Notes: generated by a model from the letters alone, not told the origin. Positions 20,821 to 28,671 are shown, numbered from the stretch's first letter. The stretch: DNA of 64,000 nucleotides from an uncultured Clostridia bacterium (GCA_944381075.1 CALWJT010000005.1:65253-129252); one strand, 5' to 3'. Program-made: numbers and translations.

Positions 20821-20958
20821 CTTAGCTTCCTTTTTATTCTCGAAAAATGATGGTTTCTCTGCCATTATGACATGCTTTGCTTGGACTGTCAACCTTTTTT
20901 TCGCGTCCCGCTGTCTTTTTACAAAAAATATCGGATATTTACCGCCACGTTCCTGCGG

Positions 20959-20987
20959 TTGACAAAAAATTCCCCGTATATTATAAT
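20959..20987 (+). promoter_or_regulatory. Perfect consensus promoter TTGACA-17-TATAAT
   Basis: TTGACA at 20959-20964 and TATAAT at 20982-20987, about 30 nt upstream of the ATG at 21018. Confidence 0.75.
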
Positions 20988-21017
20988 GGAAGCATTCAGG
21001 GAAGGAGAACGGGACCT

Positions 21018-21692
21018 ATGTTTTCCATCGAGGATTATCTTTCGGGATTTTCGGCGGCGCTGAGGGGTGCGTTCGCAGAGCGGCTCCTTTATATCGGGCT
21101 TCAGGGCAGCTATTCGCGCGGGGAGGCCGACGAGAAAAGCGATATCGACGTCATGGTCGTTTTGGATACGCTCTCGGTATCCGATTTGGACCGCTACCGG
21201 TCGATCGTGGAGCAGACGGGAGAGGCCGCGCGGTCGTGCGGCTTTCTCTGCGGCAGGGAGGAGCTTTCCAAATGGAATCCCTGCGAGATCTGTCATCTCC
21301 TCCATACGACCGAGGACTGGTACGGAAGCCTTTCGGCGCTCGTGCCGTCCTATACGGACGAGGACGTCCGGATTTTTGTCAAAATCAGCCTTGGAAATTT
21401 GTATCACGCGCTTTGTCATGGGTATGTCCATGCACAGAGAGAGGCATTTTGCGCTGCTCTTCCGGACGCCTATAAGAACGTATTTTTTATCCTGCAAAAC
21501 GTGTACTATAGGAAGACAGGCGTCTTTTTCCGGACGAAGGAGGAGCTTCTTATGGAGCTGTCCGCTTCGGACAGAAAAGTCATGGAGCAGGCGCAGGCGA
21601 TGCGGCGCGGAGAACCGTGGGATTTTCCGTCATCGTTTTCGCTGCTGCTGCAATGGTGCCGGAATATCCTATGCGAGATAGGAGAATCCTAA
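21018..21692 (+). CDS. Nucleotidyltransferase-domain protein (KNTase/MNT/ANT-like)
   Basis: GSYSRGEADEKSDIDVMVV (G-S-x10-D-x-D) followed by a helical C-terminal domain. ATG at 21018 follows GGAAGGAGAA. Confidence 0.75.
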   Translation: MFSIEDYLSGFSAALRGAFAERLLYIGLQGSYSRGEADEKSDIDVMVVLDTLSVSDLDRYRSIVEQTGEAARSCGFLCGREELSKWNPCEICHLLHTTEDWYGSLSALVPSYTDEDVRIFVKISLGNLYHALCHGYVHAQREAFCAALPDAYKNVFFILQNVYYRKTGVFFRTKEELLMELSASDRKVMEQAQAMRRGEPWDFPSSFSLLLQWCRNILCEIGES

Positions 21693-21727
21693 GGCAGGAT
21701 ATTTTGCGTCCAAAGGGAGAAAGAAAA

Positions 21728-23119
21728 ATGAAATATCAAAAGATTCGTTTCCTGTCGGCAGAGCTTTGGAATTTTAAAAATGTCGCGCACGGCAGAGTCG
21801 AGATGCCGTGTGCGCGCCGGCGGGATTTTTCGTGTGAAAAATCGGAGATCCTTGGCATCTATGGGCAGAACGGCTCCGGAAAAACGACGGTGATCGACGC
21901 ATTGTTTTTTGCCAAGCAGCTTTTGCAGGGACGGCCGCTGCCGTCCGATGCGGCAGGCTATATTGCCCAAAATGCCGAGAAAGCTGCATGCTCTCTTGCC
22001 TTCTATCTGGAGAAGGACGAGGTGGGGAGCGTCGTTTCCTATGATTTTACGATGCGCCGCGCGGAGTCGGGCGCTTGTATATCGCTGGAAAAGCTTGCGG
22101 TGCGGATGCTCAGGGAGGGAAGACTCTCGCCGGCAAGAGTGCTGTTTTCCTATGACGCGGAGGCGTCGGCGCGTTTTTTGGGGCCAAAGCGCCTTTGGGA
22201 TTCACTCGTATCCGCCGCGCCGGAGGCTGTCGTTGATCTTGCCGTGGCAAGACGGCTTGCGCTTGGGAATGCCGCTTCGTTCCTTTTTTCATCGGATTTC
22301 GGCGCTGCTCTGGCTTCTCCCTCTGACGCGCAGGAGGGACCGGCAGAGCTTTTGTCGTTGCGCGCCGCGCTTTCCGCCTATGCCGGCGAGGGACTTTTTG
22401 TCGTAAGCTCCGACCATTCCGGCGTGATCGCGCTGTCGGCTGTGCTCCCGATCGCGCTGCATTTCGACGGCGACGAAAGAACGCCGGATGAAATGCAGCT
22501 TTCCCTCACGGAGCCGTCCGTGCAGCCGCTCGATACGTACCGAGTGGTCAAAGCCTCGGTGGCGGCCCTGAATTGTGTGCTGGGCGTGCTGATCCCAGGC
22601 ATGGCGCTGGAGATCCGGGAATACGGAGGCCAAATGACGCCGGACGGCAGGGACGGCATGCGCTTTGAGATCCTTTCCGTGCGCGGGGAGAGCCGGATCC
22701 CTCTCAAATATGAATCCGAGGGCATCAAGAAGCTGATCTCCATCCTCAGCATCCTTATCGCCATGTACAACAATGCTTCGGTGTTTGTGGCCGTCGATGA
22801 ATTCGACGCGGGCGTCTATGAATATCTGCTCGGGGAAATCCTCGGGATCCTGGAGGAGAGCGGCAGGGGACAGCTGCTTTTTACCTCGCATAATCTGCGC
22901 CCGCTGGAAATGATCGACAAGCAGGACATCGTATTTACAACGACCAATCCGGAAAACCGGTATATCCGCGCTTCCGGCACAGGCGGGAATCTGCGCGACC
23001 GGTATATCCGCAGCATCAGCCTCGGCGGACAGAAGGAAGAGCTGTATGATTACCGGAATCCGATGGAGATCGCGCGGGCGTTCCGGCTGGCAGGGAGGTG
23101 CGGCGATGAATCCCGCTGA
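21728..23119 (+). CDS. ABC/SMC-type ATPase (AAA_21/AAA_15-like)
   Basis: Walker A GQNGSGKT (21863-21886), signature-like YESEGIKKL, Walker B VFVAVDEFD, H-loop FTSHN. Confidence 0.8.
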   Translation: MKYQKIRFLSAELWNFKNVAHGRVEMPCARRRDFSCEKSEILGIYGQNGSGKTTVIDALFFAKQLLQGRPLPSDAAGYIAQNAEKAACSLAFYLEKDEVGSVVSYDFTMRRAESGACISLEKLAVRMLREGRLSPARVLFSYDAEASARFLGPKRLWDSLVSAAPEAVVDLAVARRLALGNAASFLFSSDFGAALASPSDAQEGPAELLSLRAALSAYAGEGLFVVSSDHSGVIALSAVLPIALHFDGDERTPDEMQLSLTEPSVQPLDTYRVVKASVAALNCVLGVLIPGMALEIREYGGQMTPDGRDGMRFEILSVRGESRIPLKYESEGIKKLISILSILIAMYNNASVFVAVDEFDAGVYEYLLGEILGILEESGRGQLLFTSHNLRPLEMIDKQDIVFTTTNPENRYIRASGTGGNLRDRYIRSISLGGQKEELYDYRNPMEIARAFRLAGRCGDESR

Positions 23120-23804
23120 AAAAAAGGTGCTTCTGTTTTTGGTCGAAGGGACGACGGACAGCACCTCGCTTGGCCTTGTTCTCTCCCGTATCGTCGAATC
23201 GGAGGACGTTCGCTTCCATGTACTCGGCGGCGACCTCTGCTACCGGTATCGGATCAACAGGCAAAACGCGGCCAGAACCATCATGCGTCCGGTGAACAGC
23301 TTTTTGCAGCGGTATCGCCTGCGCAGGAAGGATATTCTCAAAATCGTGCATATCATCGATACGGACGGCGCCTTTATTCCGCCCACGCGCGTATTCCACG
23401 GCGGAAACGAGCATGCCTATTACGGAAGCGATAAAATCGTGACGCTTTCCGACGATTCCATGCGGGCGCGCAACGAACATAAAACGAATGCGGCGATGGC
23501 GCTCTCGGAGCTCGATACGGTAGAGCAGATCCCATATGCGCTCTACTATTTTTCACGCAACATCGAGCATGTCCTGCATGATCGCACGGACACGCTCTCC
23601 AGTGCGGAAAAGCGAGAGCTTTCCGAACGGTTTGAGAATGAATACGCGGAAGATCCCGAAGCTTTCGTTTCCTTTATTTGCTCGCGCGCCGTCGCGGTGC
23701 GCGGCAGCTACGAGCAGACATGGGACTATATTTTCCGGGGGACGAATTCCCTCAAAAGAGGGACGAATCTCGGACTGTTTTTTTCATCCATGAAAAAGAA
23801 ATAA
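23106..23804 (+). CDS. Toprim/OLD-nuclease-like protein (DUF4435/RloB/DUF4276-style)
   Basis: LFLVEGTTD (E14) and IVHIIDTDG (D85, D87; GAT at 23358). 14-nt overlap with the ATPase gene. Confidence 0.6.
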   Translation: MNPAEKKVLLFLVEGTTDSTSLGLVLSRIVESEDVRFHVLGGDLCYRYRINRQNAARTIMRPVNSFLQRYRLRRKDILKIVHIIDTDGAFIPPTRVFHGGNEHAYYGSDKIVTLSDDSMRARNEHKTNAAMALSELDTVEQIPYALYYFSRNIEHVLHDRTDTLSSAEKRELSERFENEYAEDPEAFVSFICSRAVAVRGSYEQTWDYIFRGTNSLKRGTNLGLFFSSMKKK

Positions 23805-23877
23805 AGATCGGGCCGGAACGGACGCTGCCTTTTCCCCTCGCGGCCGCGCACGGTCCGTTTTTTGGAAAGGATATCGA

Positions 23878-25227
23878 ATGAAACAGAAATCCTCGCCGGC
23901 GCGTACCGCGTATGCGGTGTCCATGGCGCTTGCCGCGGGCGTTTGCGCCAATTCGTATTTTCTGATTCGGGATATGCCGGTGCTTATCCCTGTTTTTCTT
24001 TTTCTCTTCCTTCTTACTGCGATTTTTCCCGTTTGGCCGTCCCGCAGCCCCGCTCGCCGCAGGCTGAGGCATTGCCGGTACGGCGCTGCCTGTCTCAGGA
24101 TTTTTCTCTTCTCGTGCGTCGTTTCGGCCATCTTTCACGCGGCTGCGGCAGTCCTGCTTTTTCCGGAGGAATGGCGGCTTTGGACGGAAAGCGCCGTCTT
24201 TTGCCTTTGCGTGCTCGCCGTGCTCTTCTGGGACGGGATGCTCCGTGTTTATCTTTCTTCCATTCAGCTCGGCGTCCGGCACCGCGCGGCCGGCCTTCTC
24301 TGCGGCTGGGTTCCGGTTTTGAATCTTGTCATGCTCCGAAAGATCCTTCGCATCGTGTCGGATGAGGTCGTATTCGAGACGGAAAAGGAAGCTCTGAATG
24401 CAGCGCGTGCCGGAGAACAGGTGTGCCGCACCCGATATCCGGTGCTCCTTGTGCACGGCGTTTTCTTCCGCGATCGGAAATTTCCGAATTACTGGGGCAG
24501 GATTCCGGAGGAGCTAATCCGAAACGGGGCTGAGATCTATTATGGAAACCACGAGTCTGCGGCCTCCGTACCGGACGCAGGGCGTGAGCTTGCCGCACGG
24601 ATTCGGGAGATCGCGGTGAGCACCGGCTGCGGAAAGGTAAACGTCATCGCCCACTCCAAGGGCGGGCTGGACTGCCGCTTTGCGGTCAGTCAGCTGTCCG
24701 CGGCGCCGTACGTGGCATCCCTTACGACCATCAATACGCCGCACCACGGATGCGAGTTCGCCGATTATCTTTTGAATCGGATCCCGGATACAGTTCAGAA
24801 AAAAATCGCACATACCTATAACACCGCGATGAAAAAGCTGGGCGATCAGGCTCCGGATTTCATGGCGGCGGTGAGGGACCTTACCGCCGAGCGGTGCAGG
24901 CGGCTGAACGCACAGACGGCCGCCTCGGAGGCGGAGGACGGCATCGTCTGTCTCAGCGTCGGCTCGAAGCTAAGCCGCGCGTCCGGAGGCAGGTTCCCGC
25001 TGAATTTTACCTATCCTCTTGTGAAGTATTTCGACGGTCCGAACGACGGGCTGGTTTCCGAGCGGTCGTTCCATTGGGGCGGGGAATACCGGCTGCTGAC
25101 GGCAAAGGGGAGGCGCGGCATTTCTCATGGCGATGTGATCGATCTGAATCGGGAAAATATCCCAGGCTTCGATGTGCGTGAGTTCTATGTGTCGCTTCTT
25201 TCCGACTTAAAAAAGAAAGGATTATAA
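23878..25227 (+). CDS. Membrane-anchored alpha/beta-hydrolase (lipase/esterase)
   Basis: N-terminal ~170 aa contains several TM helices. Then VLLVHGVFF and the nucleophile elbow AHSKGG. Confidence 0.75.
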   Translation: MKQKSSPARTAYAVSMALAAGVCANSYFLIRDMPVLIPVFLFLFLLTAIFPVWPSRSPARRRLRHCRYGAACLRIFLFSCVVSAIFHAAAAVLLFPEEWRLWTESAVFCLCVLAVLFWDGMLRVYLSSIQLGVRHRAAGLLCGWVPVLNLVMLRKILRIVSDEVVFETEKEALNAARAGEQVCRTRYPVLLVHGVFFRDRKFPNYWGRIPEELIRNGAEIYYGNHESAASVPDAGRELAARIREIAVSTGCGKVNVIAHSKGGLDCRFAVSQLSAAPYVASLTTINTPHHGCEFADYLLNRIPDTVQKKIAHTYNTAMKKLGDQAPDFMAAVRDLTAERCRRLNAQTAASEAEDGIVCLSVGSKLSRASGGRFPLNFTYPLVKYFDGPNDGLVSERSFHWGGEYRLLTAKGRRGISHGDVIDLNRENIPGFDVREFYVSLLSDLKKKGL

Positions 25228-25341: not shown

Positions 25342-25370
25342 TTGACAAATTATAGATGACATGCTATAAT
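25342..25370 (+). promoter_or_regulatory. Perfect consensus promoter TTGACA-17-TATAAT
   Basis: TTGACA at 25342-25347 and TATAAT at 25365-25370, in an AT-rich tract. Confidence 0.8.
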
Positions 25371-25407: not shown

Positions 25408-26049
25408 ATGAAGAATGTATATTCCATAGTGCTTTCCAGTGATGTCGTCGACAAAATCGACCGGCTCGCATATGAACGGGGGACCAACCGCTCCAACATG
25501 ATCAACCAGATTTTGGCGGAATACGTTTCCTATACGACGCCGGAAAAGCGGTTTCAGGAGATTTTCCGTCATATGCAGGATATGTTCGAGGGCAGTGCCT
25601 TTAAGACGCTGGAGCCGTCGGATACGATGTTCTCTCTGCGCTCCGCACTGGCCTATAAATATAATCCGACGGTCCGATACAGTGTAGAGCTGTATCGGAC
25701 AGACGGCGAAGAGATCGGCGAGCTGCGCGTGTCTCTGCGCACGCAGAATGCCGGACTTGTGCTGTATATGACGCAGTTCTACCGTTTGTGGAACAAGATC
25801 GAGCAGAGCTATCGGGGGGACGTTGCTTGCAGGGTAGCCGACGGCAAATATTCGAGAAAGCTAATTTTGAAGGGAGCGGATATCGAGAGCTGCGGGGCTG
25901 ACGTAGGACAGGTGATCGCCGCCTATATCGACGCCTTTGACCGGGCACTGAAAACCTTCTTTTATCATCTGGAAACGCCGTCAAAAGCGGCGGCCGGCGT
26001 GGAGGAGGTCTACCGGCGCTACATTTTTGAAAATCAAGTCTTAATTTAA
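25408..26049 (+). CDS. Ribbon-helix-helix (CopG-like) N-terminal domain protein, function unknown
   Basis: YSIVLSSDVVDKIDRLAYERGTNRSNMINQILAEY fits the beta-alpha-alpha RHH pattern, followed by a 170-aa unknown domain. Confidence 0.6.
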   Translation: MKNVYSIVLSSDVVDKIDRLAYERGTNRSNMINQILAEYVSYTTPEKRFQEIFRHMQDMFEGSAFKTLEPSDTMFSLRSALAYKYNPTVRYSVELYRTDGEEIGELRVSLRTQNAGLVLYMTQFYRLWNKIEQSYRGDVACRVADGKYSRKLILKGADIESCGADVGQVIAAYIDAFDRALKTFFYHLETPSKAAAGVEEVYRRYIFENQVLI

Positions 26050-26079: not shown

Positions 26080-28671
26080 ATGAATCTTCAGAAGTTTACA
26101 CAAAAAAGCATAGAAGCTCTGCAAAATGCGCAGACGCTGATGGCGTCGAAAGGGAACAGCCAGATCACCGAGGAGCATCTGCTGCTTGCGCTGATTGACG
26201 ACGAAGGGGGGATCGCCTCCGACCTGATTCGCCGTGCAGGCGCTTCGGTCGAGGTCATGCGCGCGGAGCTGCAGTCTGCGGTGGATGCGATGCCGGGAAT
26301 GCGGGGCGGCTCGGTGGAGGCGGATAAGATCTACATTTCAAGGGAGCTGGAGGCGGCGCTTGCCGCGGCGGAATCCATCGCTTCAAAAATGAAGGACGAG
26401 TACGTTTCCGTCGAGCATCTCATTCTCGGCATGCTGGAGAAGCCCTCCGACGGCATGCGGAAGATCTTCAAAAACGCGGGACTCGAACGCAGCGCGTTCG
26501 AGAAGGCTGTGAAGGAGATTCGCGGGAACCAGAGAGTGACAAGCGACAATCCGGAGGATACGTACGACGTGCTGGGCAAGTACGGACAGGACCTGACAGA
26601 GCTTGCCAGAAATCAGAAGCTGGATCCTGTGATCGGGCGTGACGAGGAGATCCGGCACGTCATCCGGATCCTTTCGAGAAAAACGAAGAACAATCCGTGT
26701 CTGATCGGCGAGCCGGGCGTCGGCAAGACCGCGATCGCCGAGGGACTCGCGATTCGTATCGTGCGCGGCGACGTACCGGAGAATCTGCGCGACCGCACGA
26801 TCTTTTCCCTTGATATGGGCGCGCTTGTTGCCGGCGCGAAATTCCGCGGCGAATTTGAGGAGCGGCTCAAAGCGGTTCTAAACGAGGTGAAGGAAAGCGA
26901 CGGAAAGATCATTCTGTTCATCGACGAGCTCCACACCATTGTCGGAGCGGGCAAGACGGACGGCGCCATGGATGCCGGCAATCTCTTAAAGCCGATGCTG
27001 GCGCGCGGCGAGCTGCACTGCATCGGCGCGACGACGCTCAATGAATACCGCAAATATATCGAAAAGGATCCGGCGCTGGAAAGACGGTTCCAGCCGGTCC
27101 TTGTGGCGGAGCCGACGGTGGAGGATACCATTTCCATCCTGCGCGGACTGAAGGAGCGCTATGAAGTATACCACGGCGTCAAAATTCAGGATCAGGCGCT
27201 CATCGCCGCGGCCGTTCTCTCCAATCGATATATTTCCGACCGTTTCCTGCCGGATAAGGCGATCGACCTTGTGGACGAGGCGTGCGCGCTGATTAAAACG
27301 GAGATGGAATCCATGCCGACGGAGATGGACGAGATTTCGCATAAGATCATGCAGCTTGAAATCGAGGAGGCGGCTCTTACCAAGGAGACGGATAAGCTCG
27401 CGGCGGAGCATCTTTCCGAGATCCGCGCCGAGCTTGCGGAGCTGCGCGAGAAATTCTCCGGCATGAAGGCAAAATGGGAAAACGAAAAGCAGTCCATCGG
27501 GAAGGTCCAGAAGATCCGCGAGGAGATCGAGAAGACCAACGCGGAGATCGAGCGGGCCCAGTCCGCCTATGACCTTGCCAAGGCGGCGGAGCTGAAATAC
27601 GGGAAGCTTCCGGAATTGCAAAAAGAGCTTGCCGAAGAGGAAAAGAAGGCGGAAACGCAGAAGAATACACTGCTGCGTGACCGTGTGACAGAAGAAGAGA
27701 TCGCAAGGATCGTTTCCCGCTGGACGGGGATTCCGGTATCCAAGCTCATGGAGGGCGAGCGCGATAAGCTGTTAGGCTTGGATAAGATCCTGCACCGTCG
27801 TGTGATTGGACAGGACGAGGCGGTGGAAAAGGTGTGCGATGCGATCCTGCGTTCGCGTGCAGGCATTCAGGACCCGAAGCGTCCGATCGGCTCCTTCCTG
27901 TTTCTCGGTCCCACCGGCGTCGGCAAAACGGAGCTTGCCAAGGCGCTGGCCGAGGCTCTCTTCGACGATGAGCACAATATGATCCGGATCGATATGAGCG
28001 AATATATGGAGAAATATTCCGTTTCGAGACTCATTGGCGCGCCTCCCGGCTATGTCGGCTACGATGAGGGAGGACAGCTCACAGAGGCGGTCCGCCGCCG
28101 CCCGTATTCTGTCGTACTGTTCGATGAGATCGAAAAGGCGCATCCCGACGTGTTCAACGTGCTTTTGCAGGTGCTCGACGACGGGCGCATCACGGACAGC
28201 CAGGGCAGGACAGTGGATTTTAAGAATACGATCATCATCATGACCTCCAACCTCGGTTCCGACATCATTCTGGAGGGGATCGGCAAAGACGGCGCTATCA
28301 GCGGGGAAGCGCGGGAGTCTGTGACGGCGCTTCTTCGCCGTTCGTTCCGTCCGGAATTCCTCAACCGAATCGACGAGATCGTCTTCTACCGTCCGCTTAC
28401 GAAGGAGAATATTTACGGTATCGTAGATCTTCTTGTTGCCGACCTTGCCGCCCGCCTTGCCGACAAGCGCGTCGGATTGAAGATCACGGATGCGGCCAAG
28501 GACTATATCATCGCGTCTGCTTATGATCCGACCTATGGCGCCCGTCCGCTCAAGAGGTTCATTCAGTCTAAGGTGGAGACGCTCATCGCCCGCAAGATCA
28601 TCGCGGAGGACATTGCGCCCGATACGGTCATCACCATCGATGTGGAAAACGGAGCCCTTGTAGCGAAATAA
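26080..28671 (+). CDS. clpB: ATP-dependent chaperone ClpB
   Basis: 863 aa with Clp_N repeats, Walker A motifs [10 protein letters not shown] and [10 protein letters not shown], and a long coiled-coil middle domain. Confidence 0.95.

Follow-up and report, generated by a model that had tools for sequence, protein, structure and literature searches.

Pairs of an ABC-type ATPase and a TOPRIM protein are well known as one class of defence architecture (PMC11464382, PMC13064643, 10.1101/2024.01.29.577857), and ABC ATPases are described as sensing components by which the associated effectors are controlled (10.1101/2024.01.29.577857, PMC12065111). The best-understood mechanistic model is PARIS, where the nuclease is sequestered until a phage trigger arrives: AriA sequesters AriB, which a phage protein causes to be set free, and tRNA is then cleaved (PMC11464382). 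OLD nucleases use two-metal catalysis and are regulated by their ATPase (PMC6755086). AbiL of Lactococcus combines the AbiLi ATPase with AbiLii (RloB/Toprim), and its own mechanism is unknown (PMC13064643). Mad3 and Mad4 act inside the eight-gene, methylation-associated system MADS (10.1101/2023.03.30.534895), and HEC-01 is embedded in Hma systems (10.1101/2024.01.29.577857). Here we analyzed a three-gene locus in a 64,000-nucleotide stretch of DNA (the window) from an uncultured Clostridia bacterium. A sequence-only reading had presented this locus as a three-gene defence candidate of the PARIS/AbiL/OLD kind, extended by a nucleotidyltransferase (NTase). The explanation that we favour, with moderate confidence in it as a whole, is a two-gene unit of an ATPase and a small, DUF4276-like nuclease of Toprim fold, with the NTase hitch-hiking in front of it. 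The features of the locus are as follows.

20959-20987, + strand: promoter of sigma-70 type, TTGACA-17-TATAAT, identical to the consensus at 12 of 12 positions, spacer 17 nt.
21018-21692, + strand: gene 1, a 224-aa NTase of the ANT/KNTase fold (Pfam, AlphaFold2, Foldseek).
21728-23119, + strand: gene 2, a 463-aa ABC/SMC-type ATPase of the AAA_21/AAA_15 group, AbiLi-like (Pfam, PADLOC, motifs).
23106-23804, + strand: gene 3, a 232-aa Toprim-like (DUF4276-like) protein (AlphaFold2, motifs, Pfam matches of relatives).
23842-23865, + strand: weak terminator-like hairpin with T-run 3' of gene 3 (pattern match only).

The coordinates confirmed the arrangement that had been read from the sequence, namely a perfect promoter followed by three co-oriented genes with a gap of +35 nt between genes 1 and 2 (21693-21727) and an overlap of -14 nt between genes 2 and 3 (23106-23119). 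The motifs quoted for all three proteins were also found. Perfect TTGACA-17-TATAAT promoters occur twice in the 64-kb window, whereas shuffled sequences gave an expectation of 0.01. The promoter at 20959-20987 probably drives genes 1, 2 and 3 in the clade that carries the NTase. The candidate terminator, found by consensus scan, has a 5-bp stem with four GC pairs followed by CGTTTTTTGG. The minus-strand open reading frames (ORFs) of the region were judged to be by-products of G+C-rich coding sequence.

To survey the relatives of gene 3, one genome per species was scanned (185,579 species genomes), and 80 loci with a gene 3 relative were fetched. At least 468 of the species genomes contained such a relative. 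A gene 2 homologue was detected by tblastn directly 5' of gene 3 in all 76 loci for which upstream DNA was available; in the remaining four of the 80, the upstream side was cut by contig ends. The start of gene 3 overlapped the stop of gene 2 by 1-20 nt in 81 of 88 pairs, most commonly by 17 or 14 nt, and this argues for translational coupling of the two genes. In the pair, the genes of an AAA_15/21 ATPase and a Toprim-type protein are thus consistently adjacent and co-oriented. It is distributed patchily over Clostridia, Paenibacillaceae, Fibrobacter, Akkermansia, Desulfovibrio, Fusobacteriota and Halanaerobiales, and it was found on five plasmids (among 72,556 records) and on one C. difficile phage-plasmid. 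A divergent pair with the same layout lies beside IS256 on a Cetobacterium plasmid (L117; hhalign probability 99 %, E 1.8e-18). Genes 2 and 3 thus very likely constitute a conserved ATPase-Toprim module, which is the functional unit of the locus.

Of note, some ATPase homologues occur on plasmids in other company. On the Cetobacterium somerae plasmid NZ_CP092523.1 (L098, 2152-4692), a distant ATPase homologue is followed by a minimal MNT-type nucleotidyltransferase with no Toprim partner, and this locus adjoins an MNT/HepT pair and cas13c. ATPase homologues with 30-38 % identity are located on a Lachnospira eligens megaplasmid (L100, 4986-6739) and a Paenibacillus plasmid (L101, 3983-5951). 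No gene 3 homologue was detectable 3' of either of these two ATPases, where an unannotated gap of 350-650 nt is present in each case; the gaps could reflect loss of the partner or a pseudogene.

Gene 2 matched Pfam AAA_21 at 2.8e-13. Among the PADLOC models, AbiLi (PDLC02335) scored best (7e-24), followed by AriA (4e-14), mad3 (2e-11) and HEC-01A (5e-6). The same models recurred in 41 diverse relatives, of which all 41 matched AbiLi (best 1.8e-31) and AriA, 40 matched mad3 and 30 matched HEC-01A. The Walker A (GQNGSGKT), signature-like (YESEGIKKL), Walker B (VFVAVDEFD) and H-loop (FTSHN) motifs are present in gene 2. Their core residues are invariant in 41 ATPase homologues: G43...K52-T53 of Walker A, E329-S-x-G332 of the signature-like motif, D357-E358-x-D360 of the Walker B/D-loop and T386-x-H388 of the H-loop. 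When the family profile was compared with PDB sequences, ABCE1, ABC-F, Rad50 and RecF were matched over the P-loop region only, and AriA was not among the solved structures matched at E <= 0.01. By analogy with the described systems, the ATPase is presumed to be a sensor and regulator.

The gene 3 protein of the window had no match in Pfam, PADLOC or NCBIfam and no meaningful match in PHROGs, and sequence and profile searches of PDB sequences returned nothing relevant. It nevertheless belongs to a large family. We found 115 close homologues, and a profile search of 1.84 billion representatives returned 1,920 clusters (defined at 50 % identity) at E <= 1e-3 and 744 at E <= 1e-30; the best 150 listed matches were all of ~230 aa. 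The LVEGTTD and IIDTDG motifs are both present in gene 3. E14, G15, D43, D85, T86 and D87 are invariant in 32 homologues. In the larger set of 147 homologues, invariance still holds for D43, D85 and D87, and conservation is >= 90 % at E14 and G15. Position 18 is always Asp or Glu, resulting in an E-x3-[D/E] spacing.

The AlphaFold2 model of gene 3 was of high confidence (pLDDT, the predicted score in the local distance difference test, 92.7; predicted template modelling score 0.90). Its strands at residues 7-13, 35-41, 77-85 and 142-149 are separated by helices in the order b1-a1-b2-a2-b3...b4. E14 is located in the b1-a1 loop, G42/D43 directly after b2 and D85-T-D87 at the end of b3. The Toprim domain is defined by a Glu after strand 1, a Gly/Asp after strand 2 and a DxD after strand 3 (PMC6755086, PMC12065111), and gene 3 has the Glu in the b1-a1 loop, the Gly after b2 and the DxD after b3. 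When the 147 relatives were compared with Pfam singly, 32 of them matched DUF4276 (best 2e-4), 23 matched Toprim (best 1e-3) and 9 matched OLD-like_TOPRIM (best 1.7e-3), with any other family matched by three members at most. A few relatives weakly matched the PADLOC models HEC-01B, mad4, PDC-M38B and PDC-M31B, all of which are partners of ABC ATPases. Because of the positions of the motifs and the recurrent sub-threshold matches to hidden Markov models (HMMs), gene 3 is in all probability a divergent protein of the Toprim superfamily that is closest to DUF4276 (Mad4-like). It is presumed, by analogy, to be a metal-dependent nuclease effector.

The pair resembles each of the described systems in part. 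AbiL is likewise a two-gene operon, in which an ABC ATPase of ~460 aa precedes a smaller protein of the Toprim superfamily. AbiLi is the best PADLOC model for gene 2, and the top match of the gene 3 model in BFVD was an RloB-like viral protein, although this match was weak (E 3e-3, probability 0.97, template modelling score (TM) 0.35). In contrast to AbiL, neither gene 3 nor its relatives (sets of 32 to 147) matched an AbiLii or RloB HMM. No lactococcal plasmid homologue of gene 2 or gene 3 was found by tblastn against plasmids, down to E 10. The likeness to Mad3/Mad4 of MADS (AAA_15/21 ATPase and DUF4276) consists of the mad3 match of gene 2 and of DUF4276 as the commonest Pfam match of the gene 3 relatives; for HEC-01, it consists of the HEC-01A match of gene 2 and the weak HEC-01B matches of a few gene 3 relatives. 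However, all these gene 3 matches are sub-threshold, and the pair stands alone, outside any MADS locus.

PARIS shares the combination of an ABC ATPase (AriA) with a separate Toprim protein (AriB, DUF4435/Toprim), and its AriA model was matched by gene 2. This match covers only the N-terminal P-loop region of the window protein (residues 42-96), whereas no DUF4435/AriB match was obtained for gene 3 or its relatives, and gene 3 is shorter than AriB (232 aa compared to ~300 aa). The OLD family (P2 Old, Bp/Xcc/Ts OLD, GajA) also combines an ABC ATPase with a Toprim nuclease, and OLD-like_TOPRIM is among the families matched by the gene 3 relatives (9/147). The hhVEGxx[D/E] and DxD motifs of gene 3 fit the two-metal site of Bp OLD (E400, E404, D455 and D457), where the metal ligands E400/E404 have the same spacing as the E-x3-[D/E] of gene 3 (PMC6755086). 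Unlike in OLD proteins of classes 1 and 2, where the two domains are fused in one polypeptide, they are encoded here by two overlapping genes, and neither the hhalign nor the Foldseek match to OLD was significant. In the viral scan, relatives of Old were found only at >= 73 % identity, and a search with the C-terminal part of Old returned four proteins. The earlier assignment of genes 2 and 3 to the AbiL/PARIS/OLD kind, as an ABC/SMC-type ATPase with a separate Toprim-like protein, is thus borne out by the 76/76 pairing, the PADLOC matches and the Pfam pattern of the gene 3 relatives. Judged from these sequence comparisons, the pair is most aptly seen as a family, as yet unannotated, within the ABC-ATPase + Toprim two-gene kind, with an AbiLi-like ATPase and a putative DUF4276-like nuclease.

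Whether such a pair is used for immunity was weighed from its genomic context. The patchy spread, the copies on plasmids and a phage-plasmid, and the integrases, IS66 or IS256 elements that adjoin some copies are consistent with an accessory module that moves horizontally. Several observations weigh against a defence role. Around the pair in 76 genomes, we identified 148 non-redundant neighbour proteins, which were mostly of housekeeping type (ribosomal protein S15, ABC transporters, amidohydrolases and sugar-nucleotide enzymes), and only ~10 of the 148 matched PADLOC at <= 1e-10. In 19 Lacrimispora/Hungatella-type loci (L028-L060), the pair occupies one chromosomal site with a common downstream gene of 712 aa. 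Just beyond this gene lies rpsO in 12 of the 19 loci, which suggests that the 712-aa gene is pnp. In the lineage of the window, the pair is kept between the rhamnosidase and clpB genes, and its GC content matches that of the flanks. Such vertical persistence at one site is unusual for a defence gene and atypical of fast-turnover defence islands. Moreover, HEC-01, itself an ABC ATPase + TOPRIM candidate, gave no defence in the single published assay (10.1101/2024.01.29.577857).

These observations are shared by a reading in which the pair has no immune function. It would then be either a chromosomal module for nucleic-acid maintenance or processing, in which an ABC ATPase works with a Toprim protein in the manner of RecF/RecR or RNA is processed by an enzyme like RNase M5, or else a selfish addiction module of the toxin-antitoxin type. 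The housekeeping neighbours, the constant locus across many species of a genus (19 loci with the 712-aa gene, 12 of them with rpsO), the native composition and the scarcity of copies of the pair among plasmids (5 in 72,556 records) and among phages (one record) are all in line with this reading. However, the patchy presence in at least 468 of 185,579 species genomes over unrelated phyla points to horizontal transfer, and some copies are situated beside integrases, insertion sequence elements or other defence pairs. In addition, the ATPase is closest to AbiLi, AriA and mad3, whereas its likeness to RecF and Rad50 is confined to the P-loop region. We therefore regard a non-immune function as unlikely and consider an anti-phage role of the pair, by analogy with its relatives, as the somewhat more probable alternative. 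The genomic context speaks weakly for defence, and the defence assignment, which is a prediction, rests mainly on protein families. The small defence islet that had been proposed for the window is correspondingly weakly supported, as the neighbours across the 76 genomes are mostly housekeeping genes. In Fibrobacter (L005/L079, 2267-8978), the pair is located in a real defence cluster, together with an AAA_15 ATPase and a CAP12/Pycsar-TIR-like protein, an AAA_21 ATPase and a RiboL-PSP HEPN protein, and two AAA_14/DUF4143 genes.

Next to the pair, gene 1 has a history of its own. Its product matched Pfam NTP_transf_2 at 3.7e-6 and carries the G-S-x10-D-x-D motif (GSYSRGEADEKSDIDVMVV), of which G30, S31, D42 and D44 are invariant in the family. 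The AlphaFold2 model (pLDDT 94.7) has the two-domain fold of ANT(9), AadA and ANT(4')/KNTase, with an N-terminal pol-beta NTase core that contains the G-S...D-x-D motif and a C-terminal helical bundle. These enzymes were also its full-length Foldseek matches (E 2e-7 to 1e-5, TM 0.56-0.64; the best at E 2e-7 with TM 0.58-0.64), and its sequence profile matched ANT(4')-IIb at 1.1e-4. Gene 1 shares only 13-16 % identity with them, and it does not belong to a curated resistance family, as the NCBIfam ANT and Lnu models gave 11-24 bits, far below their cut-offs of 340-525. In the family, a set of Cys and His residues (C74, C78, C92, H93, H96, H130, C133, H134, H138 and C214) is invariant or almost so, which suggests a metal site. 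To our knowledge, ANT enzymes have no such set. A role of gene 1 as an antitoxin of MNT/HEPN type was considered and rejected; no HEPN partner is present, and the full-length fold is that of ANT enzymes.

Of the 80 species loci, only 2 (L016 and L017) have an NTase beside the pair, in addition to the window and to contigs L009-L011, to which an NTase homologue had led. When the ATPase and Toprim-like proteins were concatenated for a tree, the NTase-bearing loci formed one shallow monophyletic clade. Its sister clade (L001, L018 and L019) and all outgroups are without the NTase. The sister clade has the same synteny (rhamnosidase, pair, RHH gene, clpB), and the promoter of the window aligns with a TTTACA-17-TATAAT located directly 5' of the ATPase in the NTase-less L001 and L018. 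The NTase was therefore inserted between the promoter of the pair and the ATPase. NTase homologues with 52-60 % identity were found as single genes in five unrelated housekeeping arrays and never beside the pair. In two of these arrays, the homologue follows a 5'-nucleotidase gene or an SSF transporter gene; in the other three, it lies between mannitol dehydrogenase and uxuA, between SASA esterase and AhpC/NUDIX genes, or between a MiaB-like radical-SAM gene and rluD-infC. As a side observation, the NTase gene appears as a single insertion in co-directional housekeeping arrays of many Clostridia.

In this neighbourhood survey, NTase-ATPase-Toprim triplets were confined to one shallow clade. 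The idea of a co-functional NTase is not supported, given its presence in 2 of 80 species loci and the homologues that occur elsewhere without the pair. The insertion ahead of the pair is recent and limited to one small clade, in which the NTase is very probably co-transcribed with the pair. A true three-component system of this gut Clostridia clade, in which the NTase might nucleotidylylate the ATPase, the nuclease or the trigger, or might make an (oligo)nucleotide signal as HalB of Hailong does, would agree with the location of the NTase under the promoter of the pair, 35 nt from the ATPase, and with the finding that all four clade members sampled have kept it in the same place (59-70 % identity). 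It would also agree with the resemblance of its fold to the anti-phage NTase HalB (E 4e-5, TM 0.46-0.49) and with the weak matches to the PADLOC PDC-S09 and NCBIfam HalB models. However, 78 of the 80 species loci lack the NTase, as does the sister clade with the same synteny and promoter, the NTase homologues are single genes in unrelated arrays, and antibiotic adenylyltransferases match the structure of the NTase better than HalB does. We consider such a system very improbable and are confident that the NTase stands outside the conserved system.

The assignment of gene 3 has its own contrary points. No match to a Toprim-clan HMM passed the curated cut-off, either for the window protein or for the 147 relatives. 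Alignment of the gene 3 family with P2 Old by hhalign placed FLVEGTTD on LLVEGKTE, covering the Glu motif only and at E 0.072. Foldseek of the model against PDB gave no significant Toprim match: the best match was EIIA-Man (1.7e-3), lumazine synthase and PurE (three-layer alpha/beta proteins) were also at the top, topoisomerase II appeared at E 0.07, and OLD (6njv) ranked 46th at E 0.09. The Toprim fold proposed earlier for the 232-aa protein therefore holds for the layout of strands and motifs in the model but gained no significant match in the structural search. That gene 3 is instead a generic three-layer alpha/beta adaptor or small-molecule-binding subunit with chance acidic residues, as these searches and the lack of a curated-threshold HMM match could be taken to indicate, is hardly probable, since its three Toprim motifs are invariant at the canonical structural positions, 64 member-matches gather in three families of the Toprim clan, against three or fewer for any unrelated family, and the partner ATPase comes from families whose partners are Toprim proteins (PMC11464382).

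With a Toprim-type partner for the ATPase, the pair probably functions along the lines of AbiL, PARIS, Mad3/Mad4 of MADS, HEC-01 and split OLD systems; the scheme below is drawn by analogy, mainly from PARIS and OLD. An oligomer of the ATPase would bind the Toprim nuclease, keep it inactive and serve as a sensor. A trigger derived from a phage or plasmid, or an ATP-dependent conformational change, would then free or activate the nuclease, which might cut DNA or RNA by two-metal catalysis via E14, D/E18, D43, D85 and D87. Such cutting of nucleic acid would stop the invader or the infected cell. Gene 1 would have a separate role of its own, outside the system of the pair.

The neighbourhood of the locus in the window consists of a GH78 rhamnosidase gene upstream, on the opposite strand, and a 449-aa gene downstream (23878-25227, + strand), followed by an RHH-domain gene and clpB. 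The rhamnosidase had been named correctly, whereas the neighbour read as a lipase has only a weak serine-esterase match (DUF676, 21.5 bits). This membrane-anchored, esterase-like gene is limited to the clade, as is the NTase: it is present in L009 and L016 and not in L001, L018 and L019. Because both genes are clade-specific, the pair is flanked by two independent insertions in the clade of the window. The second perfect TTGACA-17-TATAAT of the window is located at 25342-25370 (+ strand), just 5' of the 213-aa RHH-domain gene (25408-26049), which is followed by clpB at 26080-28671; the RHH protein may regulate clpB. On the minus strand, a divergent promoter-like TTGACA-17-CATAAT (20864-20892; 11/12 positions, with the TG of an extended -10) points toward the rhamnosidase gene. 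The start of this gene is probably an internal ATG (MKLREH...) and not the TTG at 20892, with which the listed ORF opens.

The novelty claimed for this locus, an extra nucleotidyltransferase, does not survive comparative analysis, and the third gene, being an insertion, is no basis on which to define a new three-gene system. If the NTase were a working third component, it would make the locus a previously undescribed, NTase-regulated variant of ABC-ATPase/Toprim immunity. The combination of an ABC ATPase with a Toprim protein is a recurrent theme of prokaryotic immunity whose mechanisms are only partly understood (PARIS, Gabija, OLD, AbiL and MADS3-4), of which the pair represents a large branch, with at least 468 species and ~1,900 clusters at 50 % identity. 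Because gene 3 is invisible to Pfam, NCBIfam and PADLOC, defence pipelines probably miss the pair or detect only half of it, with probable under-detection in gut Clostridia, Fibrobacter and Akkermansia. This annotation gap would be closed by a profile made from the gene 3 family alignments. The family also offers a small Toprim effector of 232 aa with which to ask whether 'sequester and release' of the PARIS type is general.

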